Source of the DNA: Candidatus Iainarchaeum sp.
GTDB lineage: Archaea > Iainarchaeota > Iainarchaeia > JAGGVJ01
Assembly: GCA_021158055.1 (NCBI GenBank)
Contig: JAGGVJ010000032.1
Location: 1-11,565, forward strand
DNA length: 11,565 nucleotides
Direction of reading: 5' to 3'
Shown: positions 1 to 11,565 of the stretch, piece by piece
Layout: every line of letters starts with the position of its first letter
How positions within the stretch are numbered: position 1 is the first letter of the stretch
Made by a program: the position numbers and the translations under genes
The notes under the pieces: generated by a model
Seen by the model: the letters and a program-made list of their open reading frames with translations, nothing else
Told to the model about the DNA's origin: nothing
Databases searched by the model: none

Positions 1-110
1 GATAGGCACATAAAATTACTTTGATAGGCACATAAAATTACTTTGATAGGCACATAAAATTACTTTGATAGGCACATAAAATTACTTTGATAGGCACATA
101 AAATTACTTT
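1..110. repeat. Perfect tandem direct repeat, 5 x 22 bp (GATAGGCACATAAAATTACTTT); possibly truncated by the window start
   Basis: Identical units at 1-22, 23-44, 45-66, 67-88 and 89-110 with no spacers; the repeat decays at 111 (GGTAG...). Confidence 0.98.
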
Positions 111-352
111 GGTAGTTAACGCGATTTTTCAGTAATGTAATCCGGATTTCAATCATTAACTTTTTAGTCCAGAGTTTATTTATTATTTTATAAACACTAT
201 TGTTTCATAGGCATATATTTAAAGTGTTTTTTAGTAATTAAATATGTTTTGAATAGGTTGTGTGCTAAACATGTTTGCGGGTGGCTGTGAAAATTTTCAT
301 GCGGCTTCAAAGCATGGTGTGGCATTTTTTTGGTGTTTGAGTGGTGAAATAA

Positions 353-889
353 ATGGAATTTGGCGTGAAGAAAGTTGCATTTGCTCTTTTTTCTTTTTTG
401 GTTTTGATGGCTGTTTGCCTTTTGCTCGGGTTGTTTGTTGAACAGTTTTCTTTTATGAAAATGGATAACCCGACCTTTGCGCTCATAACTGTTCCGGCTT
501 TTTTTCTTGGGTTTTTGCTGCCGGAAGCCCTGTTAAAGTATTTCGGAGAAGAGCCGTTTGGTTTTGCGTTGTCTGTTCCGGTGATATTTGTTTTCCTTAC
601 GGTTGCGGGGTTTGTTGTTTCGGTTTCAATTTTTCTCCCCGCGCTTTACGGCAGTTCCAATTTGGATTTTGCAGTGAATGTGTTTTCGCCAAAAGAAATG
701 TCTTTTGACACGCAGTATCTTGAAGACGGGACCGCTAAAACAATTTTGATATACAATCCTTGTTTGATGCTTGTTAATTCTGCAGTAATTTTTGTTGCAA
801 TATTCGGGTTTTTTGGCATATTAACTGCGAACATATTTGACTGGTACAGAAAAGAACACTGTAAAGAACAGAAGAGCAAGGGTAATTGA
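353..889 (+). CDS. Hypothetical membrane protein, 178 aa, about 4 TM helices
   Basis: Four long hydrophobic segments and a charged C-terminal tail; GGTGA Shine-Dalgarno-like motif at 343-347; ends 22 bp before the next gene. Confidence 0.8.
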   Translation: MEFGVKKVAFALFSFLVLMAVCLLLGLFVEQFSFMKMDNPTFALITVPAFFLGFLLPEALLKYFGEEPFGFALSVPVIFVFLTVAGFVVSVSIFLPALYGSSNLDFAVNVFSPKEMSFDTQYLEDGTAKTILIYNPCLMLVNSAVIFVAIFGFFGILTANIFDWYRKEHCKEQKSKGN

Positions 890-911
890 CTGGAATTGAA
901 GGATTGAAAAA

Positions 912-3689
912 ATGATTGCTGAAGTTGAACGCGGGCTTGACGCGAAAAAAATGGAAAAGCAGATTATTAGCCATTGGAAGGAAAACGATTGCGCTTTCCA
1001 GGCAAAAACAGCACCCCACAAAAAGAAACAGTTAGTCTTTTTTGACGCGCCTTTAACCACTGCAAAATCAAAGAGGTCAAGTGAACTGCGAAAGGAGATT
1101 TTACGCGACACACTTGCAAGGTTTTGGTCAATGAATTGTTTTTCACCGGAGCCGCTTTCGGTTTTTCTTCCTCCTCTTTCGGTTACTTTTGGTTCGCATG
1201 CTTTGATTGAAGAAGAAAAAAAGCAAATGGAACAAGTTGGAATCTGGACCTGCCCTGATTCTGTTTATACGATTTCCTCCAAAAAGTTTATGAATGTCGC
1301 GTGGAGCACAGTAAAGCAGCTGTATGAAAAAAATCTGCTTTATCCTGGAAAGATAATTTCGCAGGTTTGCCCTTCATGCAATGAGGTTTCAAGGCAAAGG
1401 GAGAACGAGCAGTCCAAAACAACAGGGGTAATCGTAAAACTTGGTTTTTCTGACGGCAACGGGAGTTTGGCGGTGTTTGCCGCAAACCCGAAAGATTTTC
1501 TTGACGCTTGCGGTGTTTCGGTTTCATCCAGGTCCCGGTATGTCCGGTTTGAATTTGCAGGCGAACAGATAACGGCAGAGGAGTCTGTTGCAGAATTTAT
1601 TTCAAAAAAGACACTGAAACCCCTGAAGAAACAAGAGGTTCTTTCAAAAGAAATTGCGGGCCGCGAAGTCAACAATTTGGTTGCGGGAAATTCTTTCGGG
1701 GTTGATGTTTTGGGCGGGTTCAAGGTAGTTGTTCAAAACCCGAGGGACGCATTGCAGCTAAACCAGGGGCTGAAACTTGTTGTACCGACTGCAAGTCAGA
1801 AAGATTACTTAATTGCCCTTGAGAACAACCTGAAAATTGTTCAAAATGTCAGCAAGTTGGAGTCAGCCGACAAAAAAAGACCTGCAGGCAAAAAAATTGA
1901 TTTGGACAGCAAAGTTTTAAGCAGCCTTGACAAAAAACAGCTTTTGGTGGAAAAGGTGCCTTCAGTGGTGTTTTCACAGGACTGTTTGTTTTGCGGTTCA
2001 GAAACAAAAGCGTTGCTTGGCAGCCACTGGATGTTAAGGGCAGTGGATTTCAATTTTGAGCTTATAAAGTCGCTTGATTCAGTTGAATTTGAACCGGATG
2101 AAAGCAGGCAAAAAGTAAAAAAGAATCTGATGTCAACTGATTTTCCGATTTCCCGCGTCGGCGGTTCCGGAATCCCTCTTCCTTTTTGGGTGTGCGACAG
2201 GTGCGGTAAACTGGAGATAGTCGGAAGCGTTTCAGAGCTTTATGAAAAAAGCAACAAAAACAACCGTTTTTCAGATGACTTTGATTCAGTGACAGATTCG
2301 TTTTGCGGGCTTGTAAGGGAAACAACTTGGAGTTGCGGCAGTTGCAGCAACGGCAAGATGAAGTGGGTTGATCAAATATTCTCAAGGTCTTTTGAACTGG
2401 CAGTGACGCCGTTTTTGCCTGGCCGAAAAGACAGTGAGTTCCAACCCGCTGATTTTGTGCTTGCAAACAGGATTGACAAGATGCATTTGCTGCTTTTGTT
2501 GCCGTTTGCGTTGCACCGGAAACCGTTTTTTTCAAGGATTTACTGCACAAATTACCCTGATTCAGAAAATCAAAGCCAGTTGCCTGCAAGCGGAAAAAGT
2601 GCAGATGCCTTGAGGATAGCAAGCCTTTCAGACAAATCACTTGCACTTGACATCAGTCTTCTTGACGAGCCGGAGGAGTTTATCAGTTCTCTTTTAAAGC
2701 TTCACAGCAATATGGTTTACTTTTTTTCGTTTGAGTTCCAACCGGAAGTTTACGTTGTCGAGCATTCAGAGCCAGAGGATTTGTGGCTTGACTCAAGGCT
2801 GAATTCACTGAGCAGAGACGTGGCTGATGCTTACGAAAAACTTGATTTCAAGCGTGTGTTTTTTGAAATAAGAAATTTTGTCGAAAAAGACCTGCTGGAA
2901 TTTTTTGTCCCGCTGTCAAGGAAGAAACTCTTGATTCGCGATTCAAAGCACCCGGAAAAACAGGCTGCTTTCAGGAGCATTTACGACGCGCTTGTTCAAG
3001 TCGCCTTTCTTTTGGCGCCGATGGCACCGTTTGTTTCAGAAAAAATTCACCTTGACTTGGTGTACCCATCAGACAATGCAAGCACTCCCACAATTCACGC
3101 CAAGAGATGGCCCGGGTTTGCGCAAATGAAAATAAATTCTGAAAAAGAAGAGCGAATGGGCCTGGTAAAGGAAATTGTTTCAGTTGCGGGGGTCGAAACA
3201 GGCAGGGGTGAAAAAGATCTGTTTGTGCCTTTCGAGTCGGCAGTGATTTTTTCAGACGTGCAGAAAGTAGAGAAAGCGGTGACTGAAAACAAGCACATTC
3301 TTGAATTTTTCCTTAATGCGAAGGATATTGAGGTGAAGCCCCTTGCAGGTTCAGTTACCAAGGAATCAGTTGACTTTTCAAAGGGAAAAATTAAGCTTGT
3401 CCATTCAAAGACAAACGAATTTGAAGCAGAGGGAAAGGCAAACAAGCTCATAAAAGAAGTGGGTGTTTTGCGAAGCGAGCTTGGCATACTTCCAAAAGAA
3501 GAGATAATCCTTGAAGTTGCGGCTTCAAAAGAACTTGTTGCAGAACTTTCCGGTTTTGAGAAAAACATAAAGTTCATGTCGTTTGCAAAAAGCCTGATTT
3601 TTTCCGAAAAAATTCCGGCGCTTTCATCAATGTCAAAAAAAGTGGTTGTTTTCGGCCAGGAAGTCACGATTACAGTTGCAAAGAAATAA
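912..3689 (+). CDS. ileS-like: Isoleucyl-tRNA synthetase-like protein (class Ia, archaeal/eukaryote type), degenerate and probably catalytically inactive paralog, 925 aa
   Basis: IleRS landmarks occur in the right order: E..I...W N-terminus, FFDAP, D.LARF..M, GIW...Y.T, LYEKNLLY, CPSC, DFPISR...GIPLPFW.CDRC, CGSC, PADF, ADALR, DLWLDSRLNSL, LLAPMAPFVSEKI, IH...WP and EGKA..LI..V..LR. HIGH and KMSKS are absent. Confidence 0.9.
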   Translation: MIAEVERGLDAKKMEKQIISHWKENDCAFQAKTAPHKKKQLVFFDAPLTTAKSKRSSELRKEILRDTLARFWSMNCFSPEPLSVFLPPLSVTFGSHALIEEEKKQMEQVGIWTCPDSVYTISSKKFMNVAWSTVKQLYEKNLLYPGKIISQVCPSCNEVSRQRENEQSKTTGVIVKLGFSDGNGSLAVFAANPKDFLDACGVSVSSRSRYVRFEFAGEQITAEESVAEFISKKTLKPLKKQEVLSKEIAGREVNNLVAGNSFGVDVLGGFKVVVQNPRDALQLNQGLKLVVPTASQKDYLIALENNLKIVQNVSKLESADKKRPAGKKIDLDSKVLSSLDKKQLLVEKVPSVVFSQDCLFCGSETKALLGSHWMLRAVDFNFELIKSLDSVEFEPDESRQKVKKNLMSTDFPISRVGGSGIPLPFWVCDRCGKLEIVGSVSELYEKSNKNNRFSDDFDSVTDSFCGLVRETTWSCGSCSNGKMKWVDQIFSRSFELAVTPFLPGRKDSEFQPADFVLANRIDKMHLLLLLPFALHRKPFFSRIYCTNYPDSENQSQLPASGKSADALRIASLSDKSLALDISLLDEPEEFISSLLKLHSNMVYFFSFEFQPEVYVVEHSEPEDLWLDSRLNSLSRDVADAYEKLDFKRVFFEIRNFVEKDLLEFFVPLSRKKLLIRDSKHPEKQAAFRSIYDALVQVAFLLAPMAPFVSEKIHLDLVYPSDNASTPTIHAKRWPGFAQMKINSEKEERMGLVKEIVSVAGVETGRGEKDLFVPFESAVIFSDVQKVEKAVTENKHILEFFLNAKDIEVKPLAGSVTKESVDFSKGKIKLVHSKTNEFEAEGKANKLIKEVGVLRSELGILPKEEIILEVAASKELVAELSGFEKNIKFMSFAKSLIFSEKIPALSSMSKKVVVFGQEVTITVAKK

Positions 3690-3767
3690 TTTTTTGTTTG
3701 ACAAAAGCAGTAATTCTTATGCTCTCTTGCAGTTTATGTTAAAATTTTGCAATTTTTAGTGGATAAA

Positions 3768-5036
3768 ATGAAAGTTTTTGTTAAAACATTCGGATGCGCC
3801 ATGAACAAGGCTGATTCAGATTTGCTCAGGACATATATTTCTGCAGAACACGAAGTGGTTTCAGATGAATGCAAAGCAGATGCGGTTGTAATCAACACTT
3901 GCGCGGTCAAGACCCAGACTGAAAACGCGATGATCCGGCAGATAAAAGTGCTTTCGTCTTCAGGCAAACCTTTTGTTGTCGCGGGGTGTCTCCCGAAAAT
4001 CAACATGCCTCGCATAAGAGATGTTTGTCCGCATGCAGCGTGTGTTGACACAAAATCGATGGAAAAGATAAACCGCGCACTGGACAGTGCAGTGAACAGG
4101 TCGCCTGCTTTTTTTTCAGGTGAAAAAAGAACGCAGATGATTCCGACAGACAACAAGGCAAGGGAAAGCAAGGTAATTGCAGTGATTTCGATTGCCGAAG
4201 GCTGCCTGTCTGCGTGCAGTTATTGTGGGACAAGGCTTGCAAGGGGAAAACTCCAGAGTTTTTCGCAAGCACATATCGAACGTGAATTTGACAACGCGCT
4301 GAAAAATGGTTTCAAAGAGTTTTGGCTTACGGCACAAGATACTTCCGCGTTCGGCGCGGACTGCGGTACTTCACTTGATGCTCTTCTTTCAGGCCTTCTT
4401 TCAAGACAAGGGGAGTTTCGCATACGCATTGGGATGATGAACCCAAAGCATCTTTTTCCGATTCTTGATGGCGTTGTTGAAGCCCTGAAAAACGACAACA
4501 TGTATAAATTTTTGCATTTGCCTGTGCAGTCCGGAAGCGATTCGGTTTTAAAAGACATGAACAGAGGTTATTCAAGAGACGAATATTTTGGTCTTGTTAA
4601 AGAGCTGAGATCAAAAATTAAAGATCTGACCTTAAGCACGGATATAATTGTGGGTTTTCCAAACGAAACCGGGTCTGATTTTGAGGACACACTGGATCTT
4701 TTAAATCAGGTTAAACCGGACATAACAAACATTTCACGTTTCGGGGTGAGACCAAATACCACAGCAGCAGAAATGCCTCAGCTGCACGATCAGGTGAAAA
4801 AAGACAGGTCAAGGGTTGTTTCAAAGCTTTGCGCTGATTTGAGTTTTGAAAACAACAAAAAAATGGTCGGCAAAGTGCAGAGGTCACTTGTAAGCGGTCT
4901 TGGCAGGAAAGGGAATTTCGAGGCAAGAACCCAAAACTACAAGCCGGCGATCTTAACGGAAGCGGCTTTGGGTGAGTTTGTGGACCTGAAAGTAAAAAAA
5001 GCACACCGCACGTACCTTGACGCGGAATTGGTTTAA
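3768..5036 (+). CDS. mtaB: tRNA t6A37 methylthiotransferase, MiaB/MtaB family (archaeal e-MtaB/CDKAL1-like), radical SAM, 422 aa
   Basis: UPF0004 domain cysteines (TFGCAMN, INTC, VAGC), radical SAM CxxxCxxC (CLSACSYC), FLHLPVQSGS, TDIIVGFPNET and a C-terminal TRAM-like domain. The start is moved from TTG 3747 to ATG 3768 (MKVFVKTFGC), which matches the family N-terminus. Confidence 0.9.
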   Translation: MKVFVKTFGCAMNKADSDLLRTYISAEHEVVSDECKADAVVINTCAVKTQTENAMIRQIKVLSSSGKPFVVAGCLPKINMPRIRDVCPHAACVDTKSMEKINRALDSAVNRSPAFFSGEKRTQMIPTDNKARESKVIAVISIAEGCLSACSYCGTRLARGKLQSFSQAHIEREFDNALKNGFKEFWLTAQDTSAFGADCGTSLDALLSGLLSRQGEFRIRIGMMNPKHLFPILDGVVEALKNDNMYKFLHLPVQSGSDSVLKDMNRGYSRDEYFGLVKELRSKIKDLTLSTDIIVGFPNETGSDFEDTLDLLNQVKPDITNISRFGVRPNTTAAEMPQLHDQVKKDRSRVVSKLCADLSFENNKKMVGKVQRSLVSGLGRKGNFEARTQNYKPAILTEAALGEFVDLKVKKAHRTYLDAELV

Positions 5037-5044
5037 GTTGTTTT

Positions 5045-5079
5045 CCTGCAAAACCGGTTTTGTTTTGCAGGGGGTTTTT
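5045..5079 (+). terminator. Hairpin plus T-tract, putative terminator after mtaB
   Basis: CCTGCAAAAC (5045-5054) pairs with GTTTTGCAGG (5062-5071) around a 7-nt loop and is followed by GGGTTTTT; it starts 8 bp after the stop codon. Confidence 0.6.
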
Positions 5080-5104
5080 CTCAGTTGGCGCTTGAACAAT
5101 CAAA

Positions 5105-5113
5105 TTATTTAAA
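5105..5113 (+). promoter_or_regulatory. Putative archaeal TATA box for the 5144 gene
   Basis: TTATTTAAA about 30 bp upstream of the TTG start; AAGGGG RBS-like motif at 5133-5138. Confidence 0.4.
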
Positions 5114-5143
5114 CAGGTGTGTATACAATAATAAGGGGTTTTT

Positions 5144-5896
5144 TTGAAACTTGTCAGGCTTGCATTTGATTCATATAAGAAAAACGCAAAGATAGTCGGA
5201 TTGTTTGCGCTGTTGCTTCTTTTTGCGGCGCCAATGGCAGCTCTTGCTTCGTCTTATTTTTCTTCGGGCGGTCAGTTTATCAGGTTTTCAAACATCGGGT
5301 TTGAGTTGAGTCTTATTGACCTTGCAGGAACCATGGGTTTTTTCCTTTTGTCAACCCTTGTTTTTTCAATCGCCCTGACTTTGCTTATAGCAGTTGTAAA
5401 GTCACAGTTTGCAGTTACTCAAATCAGTTCCGCGATAATTGAGGAGATTGATTCAAATTATCCTCAGGTGTTTTTGTTTTTCGTGGCATTTTCAGTGTTT
5501 TCTCTTTTGATCGGCTCGATTTTCACAAAAGCGGAAATCCCGTATTACATTTCTTCCATAGTTACGTTCCTTGTCTGGATGCCTTTTGTTTTCACGCCGC
5601 AGGCAATCATAGTGGGTGACATGAACATAGTTGCGGCCATGGCTGACAGCGCAAAGTTTGTAAAAAGAAAAGCAGATCTTGCATTGCTTTGGCTTGCTGT
5701 GGGGTTTGTTCTGGTGGGACTGGTGGCAGTGTTTGAGGCATTGCTTTACAGTGCAGTGTTTTTCATGCCGGTTGTTTCGCTTGTTGTAGTGACTGTTTTT
5801 GTGTTGCCGTTTCTTGAAGTGCTCAAGACCGAGATTTACCTGTCAAAATACGACATAATGCGGGCATCGATTGAACGCGGAATGAACCCGGAATAA
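5144..5896 (+). CDS. Hypothetical integral membrane protein, 250 aa, about 6 TM helices
   Basis: Multiple hydrophobic segments, TTG start with an RBS-like AAGGGG, and a T-tract after the stop. The pattern F.PQAIIV......AM..S..FV resembles common archaeal multi-TM hypothetical proteins. Confidence 0.8.
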   Translation: MKLVRLAFDSYKKNAKIVGLFALLLLFAAPMAALASSYFSSGGQFIRFSNIGFELSLIDLAGTMGFFLLSTLVFSIALTLLIAVVKSQFAVTQISSAIIEEIDSNYPQVFLFFVAFSVFSLLIGSIFTKAEIPYYISSIVTFLVWMPFVFTPQAIIVGDMNIVAAMADSAKFVKRKADLALLWLAVGFVLVGLVAVFEALLYSAVFFMPVVSLVVVTVFVLPFLEVLKTEIYLSKYDIMRASIERGMNPE

Positions 5897-5954
5897 GTTT
5901 TTTGCTGTTATGGGCTTTTTTGAGGAATAACAACATAGTAGGTTACTTAAGGTA

Positions 5955-6212
5955 TCATGAGGCGTCAAGAGCATCGTTTAATTCTTGTTTTGTCGGAACT
6001 GTTGAGACAAAAATCGCCTTGTCACCTATTATGATTGAAGGCGTGCTTGCCACTTGGTACTGTAGCCCGCGAAACATGTTTTCTGTCAGGTCAAGTTCTT
6101 CAAGTTCGGTGTCTTCCCGTTCGTCTGCAACTTCTTTTGCCACGCGTTTTGCTGCCGGGCAGTTTGGGCAGTTTTTTATCGTGAAGACAATCATTTTTTT
6201 CTTTTCAGTCAT
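5955..6212 (-). CDS. Thioredoxin/glutaredoxin-like (NrdH-like) redoxin, 85 aa
   Basis: CPNC active site after a beta-strand and a cis-Pro motif (YQVASTPSIII); starts 14 bp downstream of the nrdD stop on the same strand with a G-rich RBS. Confidence 0.9.
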   Translation of the reverse strand: MTEKKKMIVFTIKNCPNCPAAKRVAKEVADEREDTELEELDLTENMFRGLQYQVASTPSIIIGDKAIFVSTVPTKQELNDALDAS

Positions 6213-6226
6213 TTAAACCCCCCATG

Positions 6227-8587
6227 TTAGCTTTCATTCTCCTGCTTTATTTCTTCTGCACCGGCGCCTGCAACGGAACTGTCCTGTTCCTGGGCAGCTT
6301 TCGCAATCATAGAAGACGATGAAACCGAGTACTTTTGGCGGTCGCGCAGTTCCTGTTGTTTTCCTTTGTTCCAGGAACTGACTTTTTGCACGTATCCGGT
6401 TATCCTGCTGTACCCCTCAACGTTTGTTGAGTTGCAGTGGCTGCATTTATCGACGAGTGTTTGCGACACTTTTGAGCAGTCAGAGCACAAGGTGTAGTCT
6501 TTGGTGTATGCAAAGTAAGATGCAAGGGTGTTTTTTGCAATTTTTTTCGTCAACTCGTTTATTGCAATCGGGCTCGGGTTTGCTTCTCCAAGGAACATGT
6601 GGTTCATTGTGCCTCCTGAGAGAAGGGGGTGAAAGGATGATTCGATTTTCATCCTGTCAAACAAGCCGATATCAGCAGATGGCCGCACATGCGCACCGTT
6701 TGTGTAATAGATGTCCTCTGTGTTTTTGTTTCCCTGCACGTGCGCGTTTGGATATTTTTTGATGTCGATTTTAGGAAGCCTGTAAGACGCGCTTTCTGCG
6801 GGGGTTCGCGAGAGAACAAATCTTTTTCCGGTTTCTTTTGCAATGTCTGCAACTATTTCTTTTAGCGTGTTTATTGTTTTTAGCCCGAAGTCCCATGCTT
6901 CTTTTGAAGAGTGGAGTTCTTCCCCCATGTGGTTCAAGAGCATTTCATTCAGGCCTATGAACCCTATTTCAAGCGCCTGTTCGTCTAGGTCATAGTACAG
7001 CGTGCCTTTTTCATCAATTGGTTGGCTTAAAAATGGCAGTACTCCTGAAGACAGGCGTTTCTTTATGACTTCTTGTTTTTTTATAAGCATGTCTCGTGCC
7101 AGCTCGGCGCGTTCCCTCATCAATTCAAAAAGCTTGTTGTCGTCTCCGCCCGACTCAAGGCCTATTCTCGGCAGGTTCAAGGTGACTACCTGCAGTGCAC
7201 CGCCCCTGACAGTTCCGTTGTGAAGGTCGCTTTCGGTTGTCTGGTCTGAAAGCGGCATCAAATATGCGCAGCATTGGTAGCACGCGAATTCTGGCAGGTA
7301 CGGCTGGTTTATGAAGTAGTAAGGGGTGCCGAATTTTGCAGCAAGTTCGCTTACTTTCATCCAGCTGTCTTCATATTGGTTTGCTATCTTCGGGTTGTAT
7401 GTGACTTCGCATTTCGGGAAGCTGAATGGTTTTTCAAGCGCGTCCCCTTCAGTGTAAACGTCAATGAACGCGTCAAACAGTTTGTGCGTTTCGTCGGCGT
7501 AGTCTGCGTATGTTTTGCTTTCAGTTACTTTTCCTCCCGGAAGCACCGCCGGAATGTCTTCAAGAGTTTTTGGAACGTCCGGCTGGATGTTTATGCTTGA
7601 GAATACCACTTGCCCCCCGCGGGCAACGTACATTTGGCTCATTTCGTAAATCATTATTTGAGCCGCCTGCTTGTAGTCGGAGTAGCTTTTGCCTTCAAGG
7701 AACGGTGACATCAGGATGTTGAACCAGCTGAATCCCTGTCCTCCCGCAAAGTTGGTTTGTGCTGCCGCAAGTACTTTTGCAGCGTGCGACATTGCTACAG
7801 CATAGTGTTTTGCAGGCTTTGAGGTTGCTGTGTGAAGCCCGCGCCCGTCTGCCTTGAATCCGTTTTTTAGGAAGAACCTTATGTCGTGCGAGAAACAAAA
7901 AGGCCTTATTGGGAAGTAGTCAAGGTCGTGGATGTGAATTGCCCCGTTCATGTGGGCGTCTGCCTGATTCCTGTCAAGCACTTTTATGAGGGTGTATTCC
8001 CTCATCACGCTGTCTGCAATCAGCTTGTGGATGGTTTCGGGGTTGTGCTGCAGGTTTGCGTTTTCGGTGCTCCCCCCGTCGATCAGTTTGTTCACGTCAT
8101 AGACCGGCATTCCAAGCCTTGTGTAGTCAAGACGGGCTTTTTCAAGTCCGCTTTCAATGAGTTTTGAGTCGACCAGTTCTCTTATGAGCGGCGCTGAAAC
8201 AAAATCAAGTTTTAGTTTTTGGAGCTCTTCTTCTACGGAAGAGGATATCTGGTTTGAGAGGTCTGTTGAAAGTCCTGTTTCGCGTGTGAGGGATTCAGCG
8301 ATTCTGTCGCGGTCAAATGATTCTATTTCCATGTTGTTTGTGCGCACTTTTATCGTGAAAAGAGAGTGGTATTTCATCGCGACTTTTGCGTTTGTTTTCC
8401 CGAGTTCTTTTATTGCCTCGTATCGCAGTTCGCGCAAAGTGTTTGTGTTTGAGTTAAGTTTGAGCTTGTCAATCACCTCAACTGTTTCCCATATGCTTGC
8501 GCCGCATCTGACGCATTCGTTGCTTATCTGTTCAAGGTAGTTATTTTTTGTTTTTGCGAGTTCAAAGTTTTTTTTGTTTTCTGGCAT
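6227..8587 (-). CDS. nrdD: Anaerobic (class III) ribonucleoside-triphosphate reductase, 786 aa, with N-terminal ATP-cone region
   Basis: AHMNGAIHIHDL, PFCFSH, finger-loop QCC, TPAES, YYTN, Zn sites CSDC/CSHC and the glycyl-radical motif SRITGY (6392-6409). The start is placed at ATG 8587, which has GGAGGG 5 nt upstream, rather than TTG 8623. Confidence 0.96.
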   Translation of the reverse strand: MPENKKNFELAKTKNNYLEQISNECVRCGASIWETVEVIDKLKLNSNTNTLRELRYEAIKELGKTNAKVAMKYHSLFTIKVRTNNMEIESFDRDRIAESLTRETGLSTDLSNQISSSVEEELQKLKLDFVSAPLIRELVDSKLIESGLEKARLDYTRLGMPVYDVNKLIDGGSTENANLQHNPETIHKLIADSVMREYTLIKVLDRNQADAHMNGAIHIHDLDYFPIRPFCFSHDIRFFLKNGFKADGRGLHTATSKPAKHYAVAMSHAAKVLAAAQTNFAGGQGFSWFNILMSPFLEGKSYSDYKQAAQIMIYEMSQMYVARGGQVVFSSINIQPDVPKTLEDIPAVLPGGKVTESKTYADYADETHKLFDAFIDVYTEGDALEKPFSFPKCEVTYNPKIANQYEDSWMKVSELAAKFGTPYYFINQPYLPEFACYQCCAYLMPLSDQTTESDLHNGTVRGGALQVVTLNLPRIGLESGGDDNKLFELMRERAELARDMLIKKQEVIKKRLSSGVLPFLSQPIDEKGTLYYDLDEQALEIGFIGLNEMLLNHMGEELHSSKEAWDFGLKTINTLKEIVADIAKETGKRFVLSRTPAESASYRLPKIDIKKYPNAHVQGNKNTEDIYYTNGAHVRPSADIGLFDRMKIESSFHPLLSGGTMNHMFLGEANPSPIAINELTKKIAKNTLASYFAYTKDYTLCSDCSKVSQTLVDKCSHCNSTNVEGYSRITGYVQKVSSWNKGKQQELRDRQKYSVSSSSMIAKAAQEQDSSVAGAGAEEIKQENES

Positions 8588-8618
8588 GCTATCCCTCCAT
8601 TTTGATTTGATTGGAAAA

Positions 8619-8719
8619 ACCAATTGGTAATCTGTTTACGAATCAATTGATAATTGGTTTACGAATCAATTGATAATTGGTTTACGAATCAATTGATAAT
8701 TGGTTTACGAATCAATTGA
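8619..8719. repeat. Tandem 23-bp repeat (GTTTACGAATCAATTGATAATTG), 3.7 perfect copies plus one degenerate copy, each carrying a 10-bp palindrome
   Basis: Units at 8634-8656, 8657-8679, 8680-8702 and partial 8703-8719. Palindrome ATCAATTGAT at 8642, 8665, 8688 and (9/10) 8711; variant ACCAATTGGT at 8619 in the same 23-bp phase. Confidence 0.97.
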
Positions 8720-8761
8720 AATTAATTTAGTACAGATTATGAAGAAAAGAGTAAAAACTTG

Positions 8762-8769
8762 TTAATATA
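8762..8769 (-). promoter_or_regulatory. Candidate TATA box for nrdD
   Basis: The minus strand reads CAAAACA-TATATTAA; a second candidate, TTTTTATAT, lies at 8792-8800. The region is AT-rich, so the assignment is uncertain. Confidence 0.3.
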
Positions 8770-8977
8770 TGTTTTGTGTAAGTAAAAATTGATATAAAAA
8801 GCAAACATTTTTCATCAAAAATCTTCATTTTTCAAACATTTTTAGTAATTATTAAATACTTTTGTATATCATAACTGTATTGTGGGTATGTATTGTGTAT
8901 ATCTTGGAATAGTGTTGTGTTATGTTAGAATGCTGTTGCTGTGTCTTGGGTTGTCAGATGTTTGAGGTGGTTGCGGA

Positions 8978-9451
8978 ATGGAAGGTGAAATTGATGAAAT
9001 TGACAAAAAAATTCTTGCGTTGCTTTTAACAGATGGAAGGGCGTCTTTTAGCAGGATTGCAGAGGAAGTCACATTGACTGACGTGGCAGTCAAAAGGCGT
9101 GTTGAAAAAATGTTTGATTCGGGAGTTATTTCAGGCATTCACGCAAAGATAAATCCTAAAAAGCTCGGGTTTGGCTACACAGTTGTTTTTCTGGTTTCGG
9201 TTGAAGCAGGTAAAATTCAGCAGGCAGCTGTTGAGATAGCTGAAATTCAAAATGTTGTCGAAGTGTTTCAGGTAATGGGTGAAAAAAACCTTTTGGTAAA
9301 AATTTATGCAAAAGACATGGATCACGCAAAGAAATTCGCTGACGAGTTTGGGAGAATCAACGGTGTAATCAGTTACAGCACGAATGTTGTTTTGGATTCG
9401 TTTAAAGAAAGTTTTGGCTTGTTTGATTTTTCAAATTTCCAAAGCATTTAA
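8978..9451 (+). CDS. Lrp/AsnC family transcriptional regulator, 157 aa
   Basis: N-terminal HTH (IDEIDKKILALLLTDGRASFSRIAEEV...AVKRRVEKM...GVI) and a RAM domain (VVEVFQVMGEKNLLVKI); GAGGTGG RBS at 8964-8970. Confidence 0.95.
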   Translation: MEGEIDEIDKKILALLLTDGRASFSRIAEEVTLTDVAVKRRVEKMFDSGVISGIHAKINPKKLGFGYTVVFLVSVEAGKIQQAAVEIAEIQNVVEVFQVMGEKNLLVKIYAKDMDHAKKFADEFGRINGVISYSTNVVLDSFKESFGLFDFSNFQSI

Positions 9452-9462
9452 AGCATTAAGAC

Positions 9463-9494
9463 CTTAAATTTAAGTATAGGCCTTAATTTAAGGC
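9463..9494. promoter_or_regulatory. Paired inverted repeats overlapping the probable topA promoter
   Basis: CTTAAATTTAAG (9463-9474, perfect palindrome) and GCCTTAA-T-TTAAGGC (9480-9494); both contain TATA-like TTAAAT/TTTAA sequence. Confidence 0.5.
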
Positions 9495-9520
9495 TTTAAT
9501 ATTCCATTTTTTGTGTTTGA

Positions 9521-11565
9521 ATGAGACTGATAATTTCTGAAAAAGTAATTGCCGGAAACAAGATTGCGGCTATTCTCAGCAACGGCACTGCAGAAAAGAG
9601 ATTTTCAGGGAAAATTCCTGTTTGGAATTTTGAGTTTCAGGGCGAAAAAACAACTGTGATTCCTCTTTCAGGTCACATTCTTGATGTTGATTACCCGAGA
9701 AAGTACAATTCCTGGCTTGGAACAGACCTTGAAAAACTTATTACTGTTGAACCTGATTACAAGCATTCTGCAGTGGCAATAATCCACGCGCTTAAAGAGC
9801 ATGCAAAAGACGCTGACCGAATTACGATCGCAACTGATTCTGACCGCGAGGGAGAGTCAATTGGGCTTGAAGCAGTTGAAGTGGTACAGGCTTTGAACAA
9901 AAACGTAAAAGTTGACCGTGCAAGGTTCAGCGCCATGACTTCGGAAGAGCTGACTCATGCTTTTGACCAAAAAAACATTGAGCCCTTGAATTTCAACCTT
10001 GCTTACGCCGCAAATGCAAGGCGGGAAATTGACCTTGTGTGGGGTGCGGTTTTAACAAGGTTTTTGTCTCTTTCAAGCGGAAGAATGGGCAGGGATTTTT
10101 TGAGTGCCGGTCGCGTTCAGTCGCCTGCTTTGGCTTTGCTTGTGGACAGGGAAAAAGATATTCTCAAGTTCAAGCCCGTGCCTTTTTGGGTTGTTTCCGC
10201 GCTTCTTGAGAAAGACAAAGTGGATTTTGAAGCTCTTCACGAGAAAAAAACATTCAGCAACGCGGAAGATGCAAACGAAGCTGTCGGAAACTGCGAGGAT
10301 CCGGCGCTGGTTACGGCTGTTTCAAAAAGAAAGAAAATTTTGAAAAAACCGGTCCCGTTTAATACGACTGCATTTTTGCAGGCCGCAAACGCCTTGAATA
10401 TTTCTGCTGCCGAAGCAATGATGATTGCCGAAAGCCTTTACATGGATGGTTACACGAGTTACCCGAGAACCGACAATCAGGTTTATGAAAAGTCCATTGA
10501 CCTGAAAGGGATCCTGAAAAATCTTGAATCAAGCCCGTGGTTTAAAAAAGAGGCGCGTGAGTTGCTTGACCAGCCAAAGATTGAGCCGAGCGCGGGGAAA
10601 AAAGCAGAGGACCACCCTCCGATTCACCCGGTTGATTTTCCGAAAAAGAAATTGCCTGATAAGTACTGGAAGATTTATGAATTGATTGTAAGGCGGTTTT
10701 TTGCTACTCTTTCAACTGACTGCATTTTGAACGCCGTTAATGTGAAGCTGGTGATTGGCACTGAAAAATTTCAGTCAAACGGCCAGACAATTGTTGACCC
10801 CGGCTGGAAGAAATATTATCCTTATTCAAAGACAACTGAAGTGGTTTTGCCTGAATTGGTCAAGGGCGACAATGCCAAAGTAATTGAAGTGAAATCCGAA
10901 AAGAAGGAAACAAAACCCCCGCAGCGTTTTTCACAGGGATCCCTTATTAAGAGAATGGAGGATATGGGTATCGGGACAAAGTCCACTCGCCACGAGATAA
11001 TCAAAAAACTTCAAAACAGGCGTTATGTGAACGCGGGAAAAGTTCTTCAGCCGACGTCTTTGGCTTTTGCTGTCATCGGTTCTCTTGAAAAGGGCGCGAA
11101 AGAAATTGTGCTTTCTGAAATGACTTCAAAGCTTGAAGAAGAAATGGATCTGATTGCTGCAAAGAAGAAGACAAAAAAAGAAGTGACTGTTGATTCTCAA
11201 GACATATTGAAGGAAGCCCTTAAAAAACTGAAAAAAACACAGAAGGAGTCAGTGGGTTTCATTAGAAGCGCGGTTGCTGACGCAAACATTGTCGGAAAAT
11301 GCCCGAAGTGCAACAAAGGTGATTTGAGATTGATCAAGTCAAAGGCAACCGGAAAAAGGTTTATCGGCTGCTCAAATTATCCCGAGTGCAGCAACAGTTT
11401 TCCTGCTCCTCAAGAGGGCCAGATAATTGCTTTAAAGACGCCGTGTCCCGAGTGCGGTCTTCCGCAGATAAAAGTGACCAGAAAACATTCGAGAGGTTAC
11501 CAGATGTGCATTGATCCCAAGTGCAAGTCAAAAGAAGGCTGGGGAAAAAAGAAAACTGATTCTAA
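9521..11565 (+). CDS. topA: DNA topoisomerase IA (archaeal TopA), at least 681 aa, 3' end runs off the window
   Basis: Translated by hand from ATG 9521: MRLIISEK (TOPRIM), LSGHI, ATDSDREGE, LSAGRVQSPAL, catalytic SYPRTD (Tyr at 10460-10462), DHPPIHP, GIGTKSTR, and zinc ribbons CPKC..CSNYPEC and CPEC..CIDPKC. No stop occurs before the window end, which explains its absence from the ORF track. Confidence 0.97.
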   Translation, partial: MRLIISEKVIAGNKIAAILSNGTAEKRFSGKIPVWNFEFQGEKTTVIPLSGHILDVDYPRKYNSWLGTDLEKLITVEPDYKHSAVAIIHALKEHAKDADRITIATDSDREGESIGLEAVEVVQALNKNVKVDRARFSAMTSEELTHAFDQKNIEPLNFNLAYAANARREIDLVWGAVLTRFLSLSSGRMGRDFLSAGRVQSPALALLVDREKDILKFKPVPFWVVSALLEKDKVDFEALHEKKTFSNAEDANEAVGNCEDPALVTAVSKRKKILKKPVPFNTTAFLQAANALNISAAEAMMIAESLYMDGYTSYPRTDNQVYEKSIDLKGILKNLESSPWFKKEARELLDQPKIEPSAGKKAEDHPPIHPVDFPKKKLPDKYWKIYELIVRRFFATLSTDCILNAVNVKLVIGTEKFQSNGQTIVDPGWKKYYPYSKTTEVVLPELVKGDNAKVIEVKSEKKETKPPQRFSQGSLIKRMEDMGIGTKSTRHEIIKKLQNRRYVNAGKVLQPTSLAFAVIGSLEKGAKEIVLSEMTSKLEEEMDLIAAKKKTKKEVTVDSQDILKEALKKLKKTQKESVGFIRSAVADANIVGKCPKCNKGDLRLIKSKATGKRFIGCSNYPECSNSFPAPQEGQIIALKTPCPECGLPQIKVTRKHSRGYQMCIDPKCKSKEGWGKKKTDS

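Follow-up and report, generated by a model that had tools for sequence, protein, structure and literature searches.

A full-length isoleucyl-tRNA synthetase homolog with erased catalytic and editing motifs in the probable native ileS slot of a Candidatus Iainarchaeum genome

What can an archaeon still draw from a gene that encodes, end to end and uninterrupted, a complete isoleucyl-tRNA synthetase (IleRS) from which the residues required for aminoacylation have disappeared? The question is raised by positions 912-3689 of an 11,565-nucleotide stretch of DNA from Candidatus Iainarchaeum sp. (GenBank assembly GCA_021158055.1, contig JAGGVJ010000032.1, positions 1 to 11,565), which was analysed as a whole and is referred to below as the window. 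It constitutes contig C30 of genome G000, a 1.15-Mb assembly of 45 contigs with an estimated completeness of 94.9% and an estimated contamination of 0.05%. An original prediction, made by inspection of the letters alone, had described the gene as an IleRS pseudo-enzyme that retains its structural parts. The best explanation that we can offer for the evidence presented here, and one that we regard as probable, is that its product, P0001, is a full-length descendant of the native ileS of this lineage, dead in both catalysis and editing, and maintained by selection in a non-catalytic role.

The reading frame opens with an ATG on the forward strand and yields a product of 925 residues. It is full-length and uninterrupted, as had been predicted, and the translation bears out every coordinate given in the original prediction; in the five remaining frames of 912-3689, no open reading frame (ORF) is longer than 194 residues. 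P0001 is colinear with IleRS from one end to the other at an overall identity of 22-25%, and BLASTP against the canonical IleRS of the same genome gives a colinear match with 23% identity over 474 columns in the N-terminal half and 25% over 374 columns in the C-terminal half. The best NCBIfam model for the protein is ileS (8.3e-47), every one of its 13 PDB sequence matches is an IleRS, and Pfam recovers the Anticodon_1 domain (5.9e-18, residues 623-760), a partial match to tRNA-synt_1 (2.3e-12) and a weak match to DUF5915. Full-length colinearity, the greater closeness to IleRS than to other class Ia synthetases, the zinc-binding cysteines, and the anticodon-binding and C-terminal domains all point to P0001 being a descendant of IleRS by homology. 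Functional models give a different picture. TIGR00392, which describes the functional isoleucine--tRNA ligase, scores P0001 at 159.9 bits, below its cut-off of 621.4, and neither of the two class I signatures needed for a functional IleRS, HIGH and KMSKS, is present. The MupA and MupB models (NF000257 and NF000258) reach 100.5 and 85.2 bits, short of their cut-offs of 1900.

The roles of the class Ia motifs in binding ATP, in binding the amino acid and in editing are well established, and their fate in P0001 can be followed column by column. BLASTP pairs the canonical HMGH with RSSE, DVLDVWFDSG with QIFSRSFELA, and EGADQFRGWW with AN....RIDKMH. This bears out the predicted replacements of DVWFDSG by SRSFELA and of EGxDQxRGW; the change of HIGH to RSSE at 1074-1085 (residues 55-58) is likewise evident from translation and alignment. 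The segment that faces the canonical KFSKS contains no K-x-S-K-S, and the alignment agrees with the claim that the KMSKS loop is absent between PFFSRIY and ADALR (2523-2615). The GWDxHGLPIE segment had been described as missing. The loss of about 30 residues in this region is real, but the segment is not wholly gone, since a vestige, TFGSHAL, aligns just before the gap. The three motifs of the amino-acid pocket, GWDxHG, DxWFDSG and ExxDQxRGW, thus read TFGSHAL, SRSFELA and NRIDKM, the last with a four-column gap. Both halves of the Rossmann fold are shortened, the first by about 24 residues relative to the canonical copy and the second likewise. Further losses include two Arg/Trp positions of DWxISRxRxWG, the DxW of DVWFDSG, the E, Q, R and W of EGxDQxRGW, and the lysine of KMSKS. 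In the editing motifs of connective peptide 1 (CP1), a final Asp and one Pro remain and the rest is replaced; this erasure of the editing site is an addition to what the original prediction had observed. Over the 126 columns that are conserved at a level of at least 90% among 51 aligned canonical IleRS, P0001 keeps the conserved residue in 59, as compared to 84 in the active valyl-tRNA synthetase of the same genome. As far as can be judged from sequence, the motif loss excludes both the synthetic and the editing chemistry of IleRS for P0001.

The four CXXC motifs (at 1368, 1983, 2193 and 2334) are present in the translation as predicted, and their eight zinc cysteines are kept in P0001 and in its ortholog (see below) alike. 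P0001 likewise retains numerous structural Gly, Pro and Trp residues, D-x-x-R in the DALR stretch, and the majority of the conserved residues of the anticodon-binding domain. Expressed relative to the identity observed between canonical enzymes, the identity of the anticodon-binding domain is 0.78 and that of the C-terminal domain 0.69, with values of 0.40-0.49 for the Rossmann, CP1 and CP-core regions; the two domains that were predicted to be kept are hence the least diverged parts of the protein. Superposition of a structural model had been suggested as a check. AlphaFold with a 95-row alignment gave a model that retains the whole IleRS architecture (predicted local distance difference test score, pLDDT, 86.4; predicted template modelling score, pTM, 0.87), in which residues 50-53, just before the former HIGH, and residues 90-93 are the sole segments with a pLDDT below 50. 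Foldseek searches with this model recovered IleRS2 (8c9d) first, with a TMq of 0.83, and the yeast IleRS-tRNA(Ile) complex (8wnd) with 0.82; among the fold matches listed, the top 19 are all IleRS.

The original prediction had proposed that a canonical ileS should be sought elsewhere in the genome. Such a gene was found, split over the contig ends C26:1-1420 and C17:1-1752, which share an exact 127-nt overlap. TIGR00392 matches the C26 part with 586.7 bits (model positions 4-485) and the C17 part with 354.6 bits (model positions 448-852), and all the motifs are intact in this copy (HMGH, GYDTHGLPIE, WTTTPWT, GTGLVHTAPGHG, DVWFDSG, EGADQFRGWW and KFSKS). Its presence indicates that the window gene is a paralog and not the sole IleRS of the genome; with its catalytic residues lost and an active paralog present, P0001 can be classed as a predicted pseudoenzyme. 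The canonical copy clusters with IleRS of the same class, and may have arisen by duplication or by transfer, both of which are allowed by the trees. Its flanks have nothing in common with the flanks of ileS in relatives, and no marker genes were found there. Upstream of it, C26 has a G+C content of 36% and encodes radical-SAM/SPASM/methyltransferase and DUF3800 proteins. The end of contig C41 (3226-3378) repeats the 5' end of this ileS with one residue altered and is preceded by another sequence, which suggests strain variation beside ileS. Most canonical IleRS of the relatives in the class (loci L018-L051) have the form H-x-G-T in the HIGH signature, together with an intact KMSKS; the copy in this genome has HMGH.

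Is the degenerate copy conserved as a protein? In a word-indexed search of 5.8 billion proteins, the nearest match of near-equal length to P0001 was no closer than 28% identity. An exhaustive search of 1.84 billion representatives returned one close match, P0100, a fragment of 343 residues with 69% identity that is labelled in its source as a partial class I tRNA ligase from a Candidatus Diapherotrites metagenome-assembled genome. The 90% cluster of P0100 contains P0251 (715 residues), and the 5042-nt contig that encodes P0251 also encodes P0250 (176 residues), which is 72% identical to residues 749-924 of P0001. Taken together, P0251 and P0250 align with P0001 over 891 residues, of which 71.3% are identical; two indels of 4 and 6 residues, both in frame, separate the sequences, and the motifs of this ortholog are degenerate in the same manner (RSTE, IVVPSASQKD, SRSFELA, and no KMSKS). 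Identity per 30-residue bin ranges from 53% to 87%, with peaks at residues 31-90, 421-450, 661-720 and 781-810; in the first of these, which spans the replaced HIGH region, the orthologs share 83% identity.

To model neutral evolution, the window ORF was subjected to random point substitution down to the identity of the ortholog in 600 runs. The simulated sequences acquired on average 12.4-16.7 stop codons, with a minimum of 4, against 0 in the window ORF, and the mean BLOSUM62 score of the substitutions was -0.42 to -0.52 (standard deviation 0.10, maximum -0.216), against an observed value of +0.102. The absence of stops and the conservative nature of the substitutions point to purifying selection on P0001. 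The search for homologs that was suggested in the original prediction thus recovered an ortholog with the same erased motifs and protein-level signs of purifying selection. Neutral decay in relatives had been named there as an adverse outcome: the differences are conservative and in frame, but the ortholog is annotated as two ORFs, which makes some decay or splitting possible.

Beyond this ortholog, contigs from two cold-seep metagenomes (runs X3 and X4) carry a relative of the whole window that is about 92-94% identical, as estimated from the table of matching pieces. No indel is tabulated within 912-3689 for these relatives, for which the pieces listed are 912-2464 and 2991-3689 in X3, and 912-1004, 2719-3308 and 3616-3689 in X4. 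Scans of metagenome contigs and of genome contigs found no relative, and no ortholog of the dead copy was found among 40 relatives or among 215 genomes of the class, in which the order is represented by this genome alone. The sole other match in the genomes of the class, in G134, has 25% identity, which is the level of a canonical IleRS. A look-up of P0001 in the ESM Atlas returned ordinary IleRS clusters and nothing else.

Gene order provides an indication of the origin of the degenerate copy. In G001, a relative from the same class, genes for a canonical IleRS, MtaB, orf254 (the homolog of a 250-residue ORF of the window), NrdD on the opposite strand, Lrp and TopA follow one another in the same order as in the window (Table 1), and in G004 a canonical IleRS is encoded immediately upstream of MtaB. 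Of the 26 relatives with a match to MtaB, these 2 alone show the adjacency of IleRS and MtaB. The IleRS of G001 is also the best full-length match to P0001 in the library of 1.84 billion proteins (210 bits, with the next at 161.5) and the best match for single domains (82.7 bits for the anticodon-binding and 39.9 bits for the C-terminal domain), and the C-terminal domains of the two proteins are of nearly the same length (166 residues in the IleRS of G001 against 165). As the window gene occupies the slot of the canonical ileS of G001, it is probably the native ileS, which degenerated after a second copy had taken over the charging of tRNA. Given that the position next to mtaB goes back to the canonical ileS found in relatives, we claim no functional tie between P0001 and MtaB. 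TopA shows 41-50% identity to its counterparts in relatives (full-length matches), and a closest relative is not singled out by these values.

Degenerate IleRS-like proteins are also found elsewhere. A motif table of the best 150 library matches of P0001 contains additional IleRS homologs of full length in which the HIGH and KMSKS columns have degenerated, as have the editing columns in most cases. One group comes from Thermoplasmatota (P0104, P0106, P0180, P0166, P0240 and P0187); its proteins have 910-1480 residues, with one cluster member of 1825, and those that have a name are called 'class I tRNA ligase family protein'. P0104, P0240 and two close relatives are annotated with additional domains of the helix-hairpin-helix type. 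The other group, from Chloroflexota, has 12 representatives (P0110, P0117, P0128, P0141, P0145, P0150, P0154, P0155, P0163, P0186, P0218 and P0236), some of which are named 'isoleucine--tRNA ligase' in their source, and forms a clade inside another type of IleRS (Shimodaira-Hasegawa-like approximate likelihood ratio test, SH-aLRT, 100). In addition, there are a few very long degenerate proteins (P0121, P0127, P0192, P0198 and P0220). The Thermoplasmatota and Chloroflexota proteins resemble P0001 in being homologous to IleRS over the full length and in their degenerate HIGH and KMSKS columns, but they differ from it in having other indels, extra domains (in Thermoplasmatota) and no shared gene context. 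According to the original prediction, no described family of full-length dead IleRS is known. This holds in that our searches found no description in print, but the degenerate kin in Thermoplasmatota and Chloroflexota indicate that the case is less singular than was assumed there.

Taken together, these observations suggest a course of events in which a second, canonical ileS elsewhere in the genome would have taken over aminoacylation, and the native ileS would have stayed in its old slot and degenerated, losing isoleucine activation, tRNA charging and editing, with purifying selection keeping the degenerate copy as a folded protein. P0001 might then act via its anticodon-binding and C-terminal domains, which are closest to the ancestral state. 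These two domains are the parts that hold the anticodon arm in IleRS, and P0001 may bind the anticodon arm of tRNA(Ile) or of a similar tRNA as a sensor, a chaperone or a scaffold. Judging from what has been kept, non-catalytic binding of a tRNA anticodon arm is the most likely activity of P0001. The sequence checks support the view, already advanced in the original prediction, that the protein was repurposed for a non-catalytic role, and tRNA binding, sensing or scaffolding is what we infer that role to be. The conservation of the remodelled region 31-90 suggests, in addition, a new constraint on the former catalytic half, such as a protein partner or a ligand. A wider proposal, possible but doubtful in our estimation, is that the native IleRS became a reader of the tRNA(Ile) anticodon arm, serving as a sensor of uncharged tRNA or as a chaperone, and that dead IleRS recur in DPANN, Thermoplasmatota and Chloroflexota as an undescribed class of tRNA-binding pseudo-synthetases.

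Several points weigh against a selected, non-catalytic descendant of the native ileS. Predicted by AlphaFold from its single sequence, P0001 attains a pLDDT of 32.1, and as the alignment behind the higher-scoring model consists mostly of canonical IleRS, that model indicates compatibility with the full architecture and is no independent proof of the fold. The evidence for purifying selection is confined to the protein level. The ortholog is called as two ORFs of 715 and 176 residues, with the break falling between residues 725 and 749 and about 23 residues absent there, where the anticodon-binding domain meets the C-terminal domain; it may reflect a frameshift, a stop codon, a genuine split of the gene or a fault of assembly. 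Both contigs that carry the canonical ileS are short, and C26 is unusual in its tetranucleotide composition (98.5th percentile of distance), which leaves a small chance of mis-binning. Finally, the free tree places P0001 and its ortholog on a stem of 2.0-2.4 substitutions per site beside degenerate IleRS-like proteins, and sequence phylogeny does not settle the origin of the pseudo-IleRS. Constraining the pair to group with the IleRS of G001 and G004 and with P0105 gave a log-likelihood 5.53 above that of the free tree (approximately unbiased test, p-AU, 0.55), the same constraint with the degenerate groups added gave one 22.2 lower (p-AU 0.188), and grouping of the pair with the canonical copy of its own genome gave one 3.89 lower (p-AU 0.456); none of these constraints is rejected.

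Some of these features could mean that the replaced ileS is simply a decaying pseudogene that drifts and has not yet acquired a stop: all of its catalytic and editing motifs are lost, its stem branch is very long, and its ortholog is called as two ORFs. We consider this unlikely, as neutral drift to the identity of the ortholog never produced fewer than four stops, whereas the window ORF is free of them and the ortholog is interrupted once at most. The substitutions are, moreover, far more conservative than neutral ones, the in-frame 4- and 6-residue indels are the only ones between the orthologs, conservation is patchy with blocks at 80-87%, and the 176 residues past the break in the ortholog are still 72% identical. 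The same conservation could be taken to indicate an enzyme that is still catalytic, with a pocket remodelled for another ligand or reaction as in SbzA or GluQ, given that the replaced HIGH region lies in one of the best-kept stretches between the orthologs and that the fold and the zinc sites persist. This appears rather unlikely, because every class Ia motif for ATP or the amino acid is replaced or deleted, about 24 residues are missing from the second Rossmann half, and the window offers no biosynthetic gene context. The known repurposed IleRS-like protein SbzA, on the other hand, keeps the signatures in the forms HYGH and AMSKA, according to the part of a 2026 review that deals with it (PMC12945691).

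The tree raises the alternative that P0001 is no degenerated native ileS but was acquired by transfer, as a member of an ancient family of dead IleRS-like proteins that also occurs in Thermoplasmatota. In one tree, P0001 and its ortholog group with all six Thermoplasmatota proteins (SH-aLRT 99), and a few replacements look alike in both: the ISRQRYWG motif takes the form R-x-D-G-x-G, for example, and a conserved Arg has become Trp. Both lineages are long-branched, which makes long-branch attraction likely, and the grouping is probably best read as such an artefact combined with independent loss. The pair shares none of the indels of the Thermoplasmatota group, in which the deletion of the KMSKS loop is placed differently, and has an 8-residue insertion, a deletion of about 30 residues and deletions in the second Rossmann half of its own. 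P0001 scores 86-144 bits against that group, below the 210 bits against the IleRS of G001; the group has extra helix-hairpin-helix-type domains and lengths of 1174-1825 residues; and the synteny of six genes puts the pseudo-IleRS in the native ileS slot. The topology with the IleRS of G001 and G004 is, as noted, not rejected at a p-AU of 0.188. Descent from such a family is improbable in our view. The origin of the canonical contigs from another organism, which would leave the window gene as the only IleRS-like gene of its own, could be argued from the shortness of the two contigs (4.5 and 5.5 kb) and from the low G+C content and unusual tetranucleotide composition of C26. C17, joined to it by the exact overlap, is typical in composition (61st percentile of tetranucleotide distance), the product of the canonical gene falls among the IleRS of its class in trees, and the contamination estimate of the bin is minimal. 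Since Ile-tRNA cannot be supplied by a protein that lacks the HIGH and KMSKS signatures together with the amino-acid pocket, a canonical enzyme must exist regardless, and we hold this last alternative to be very unlikely. The preferred reading of P0001 thus remains that of a non-catalytic descendant of the native ileS.

Table 1. Coordinates of the pseudo-IleRS gene, its motifs and domains, and the neighbouring genes in the window
Feature	Positions	Strand	Evidence
Pseudo-IleRS gene, 925 codons + stop, product P0001	912..3689	+	ORF translation, Pfam, NCBIfam, BLASTP
HIGH position, reads R-S-S-E, residues 55-58	1074..1085	+	Alignment; ortholog reads R-S-T-E
CPSC, zinc site 1 first half (C153, C156), retained	1368..1379	+	Translation, alignment
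Editing motif WTTTPWT position, reads FAANPKD, residues 189-195	1476..1496	+	Alignment
Editing motif H-x-A-P-x-H-G-x-x-D position, reads LVVPTASQKD, residues 289-298	1776..1805	+	Alignment
CLFC, zinc site 1 second half (C358, C361), retained	1983..1994	+	Translation, alignment
DFPISRVGGSG, D-W-x-I-S-R-x-R-x-W-G kept in part, residues 410-420	2139..2171	+	Alignment
CDRC, zinc site 2 (C428, C431), retained	2193..2204	+	Translation, alignment
CGSC, zinc site 2 (C475, C478), retained	2334..2345	+	Translation, alignment
DVWFDSG position, reads SRSFELA, residues 491-497	2382..2402	+	Alignment
Second Rossmann-fold half, shortened, without KMSKS loop (PFFSRIY...ADALR)	2523..2615	+	Alignment
Anticodon-binding helical domain, residues 623-760, best-preserved part	2778..3191	+	Pfam Anticodon_1, domain identity
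C-terminal domain, residues 829-924	3396..3683	+	Weak DUF5915 match, domain identity
MtaB-like tRNA ms2t6A37 methylthiotransferase, likely ATG 3769, directly downstream	3747..5036	+	Pfam, NCBIfam
250-residue ORF, no known family; homolog at same place in G001	5144..5896	+	Pfam, synteny
Anaerobic ribonucleotide reductase NrdD, synteny marker	6227..8623	-	Pfam, NCBIfam
Lrp/AsnC regulator, synteny marker	8978..9451	+	Pfam, synteny
DNA topoisomerase I (topA), runs off contig, synteny marker	9521..11563	+	Pfam, NCBIfam

The remainder of the window shows a few further features. An ORF of 104 residues lies between the 250-residue ORF and nrdD. Directly upstream of the pseudo-IleRS gene is an ORF of 178 residues (353-889) that appears by eye to be largely hydrophobic; it has no Pfam or NCBIfam match, and no counterpart upstream of ileS in G001 or G004. 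In the X3 and X4 relatives, this ORF contains compensating -1/+1 indels at 712-717. A scan of the window for sigma-70 promoters and terminators gave the same counts as shuffled sequences. By eye, the stop of the pseudo-IleRS gene is followed by a T-run, and about 25 nt upstream of the likely mtaB start (ATG at 3769) there is an A+T-rich box, which suggests that mtaB may have its own promoter and be transcribed separately. The spacer between mtaB and the 250-residue ORF (5007-5130) is replaced by 782 other letters in X3. Between nrdD and the Lrp/AsnC gene, a 23-nt unit is repeated 4.5 times (8621-8723), touching the start of nrdD; X3 lacks 68 nt at 8652-8721, indicating that the copy number of the unit varies, and the repeat may be a set of binding sites for a regulator. 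At the start of the contig (1-115), a 22-nt unit is repeated 5.2 times head to tail, and contigs from the runs continue from there into unlike sequence.

Synthetase derivatives that have lost aminoacylation are known from other families. HisZ is a regulatory subunit, and the HisRS-like domain of GCN2 senses uncharged tRNA; both are derived from the class II HisRS, and HisZ has no anticodon-binding domain. They are comparable to P0001 in the kind of role proposed for it, but unlike these class II derivatives P0001 retains a whole multi-domain class Ia architecture. A closer parallel is LeuRS-I of Sulfolobaceae, which binds tRNA and makes leucyl-adenylate, cannot aminoacylate, and matters for optimal growth, as stated in the relevant part of a 2022 review of synthetase duplications (PMC9437257). 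Like P0001, it is a full-length archaeal class Ia duplicate that exists beside a working copy, with a disrupted CP1 editing domain and no aminoacylation (as given in the same part of PMC9437257). Its synthetic site is, however, reported to be still alive in the formation of leucyl-adenylate, whereas P0001 lacks HIGH, KMSKS and the amino-acid pocket motifs, and the two proteins belong to different synthetase families and different archaeal lineages. For IleRS itself, the passages of that review on duplications give only IleRS2 and SbzA (PMC9437257). IleRS2, MupA, MupB and SbzA are, like P0001, encoded by second IleRS genes within one genome, and an IleRS2 is the best fold match of the P0001 model, but these are active enzymes with signature motifs, and SbzA transfers Ile from Ile-tRNA, according to the portions of the reviews that cover them (PMC12945691, PMC9437257). 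IleRS is listed among the most stable synthetases in the pertinent part of a survey of more than 2500 genomes (PMC5388404).

Full-text searches of the literature, which did not extend to supplements, returned no description of a catalytically dead IleRS, and P0001 is the first case that we could find of a non-catalytic IleRS paralog in which both active sites are erased and the ancestral gene slot is retained. HisZ, the GCN2 domain and LeuRS-I each revealed a regulatory or tRNA-handling role. The source name 'isoleucine--tRNA ligase' on degenerate proteins of this kind can mask the absence of a function or lead to too many synthetase duplicates being counted. P0001 would also illustrate a route of gene displacement in which the native copy stays in its neighbourhood and changes its function, and a second copy does the essential work. 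It offers a natural system in which tRNA binding by a class Ia synthetase could be studied apart from its chemistry, and the apparent selection of a full-length IleRS with erased synthetic and editing sites in a genome of 1.15 Mb suggests that the IleRS scaffold may be useful beyond catalysis.

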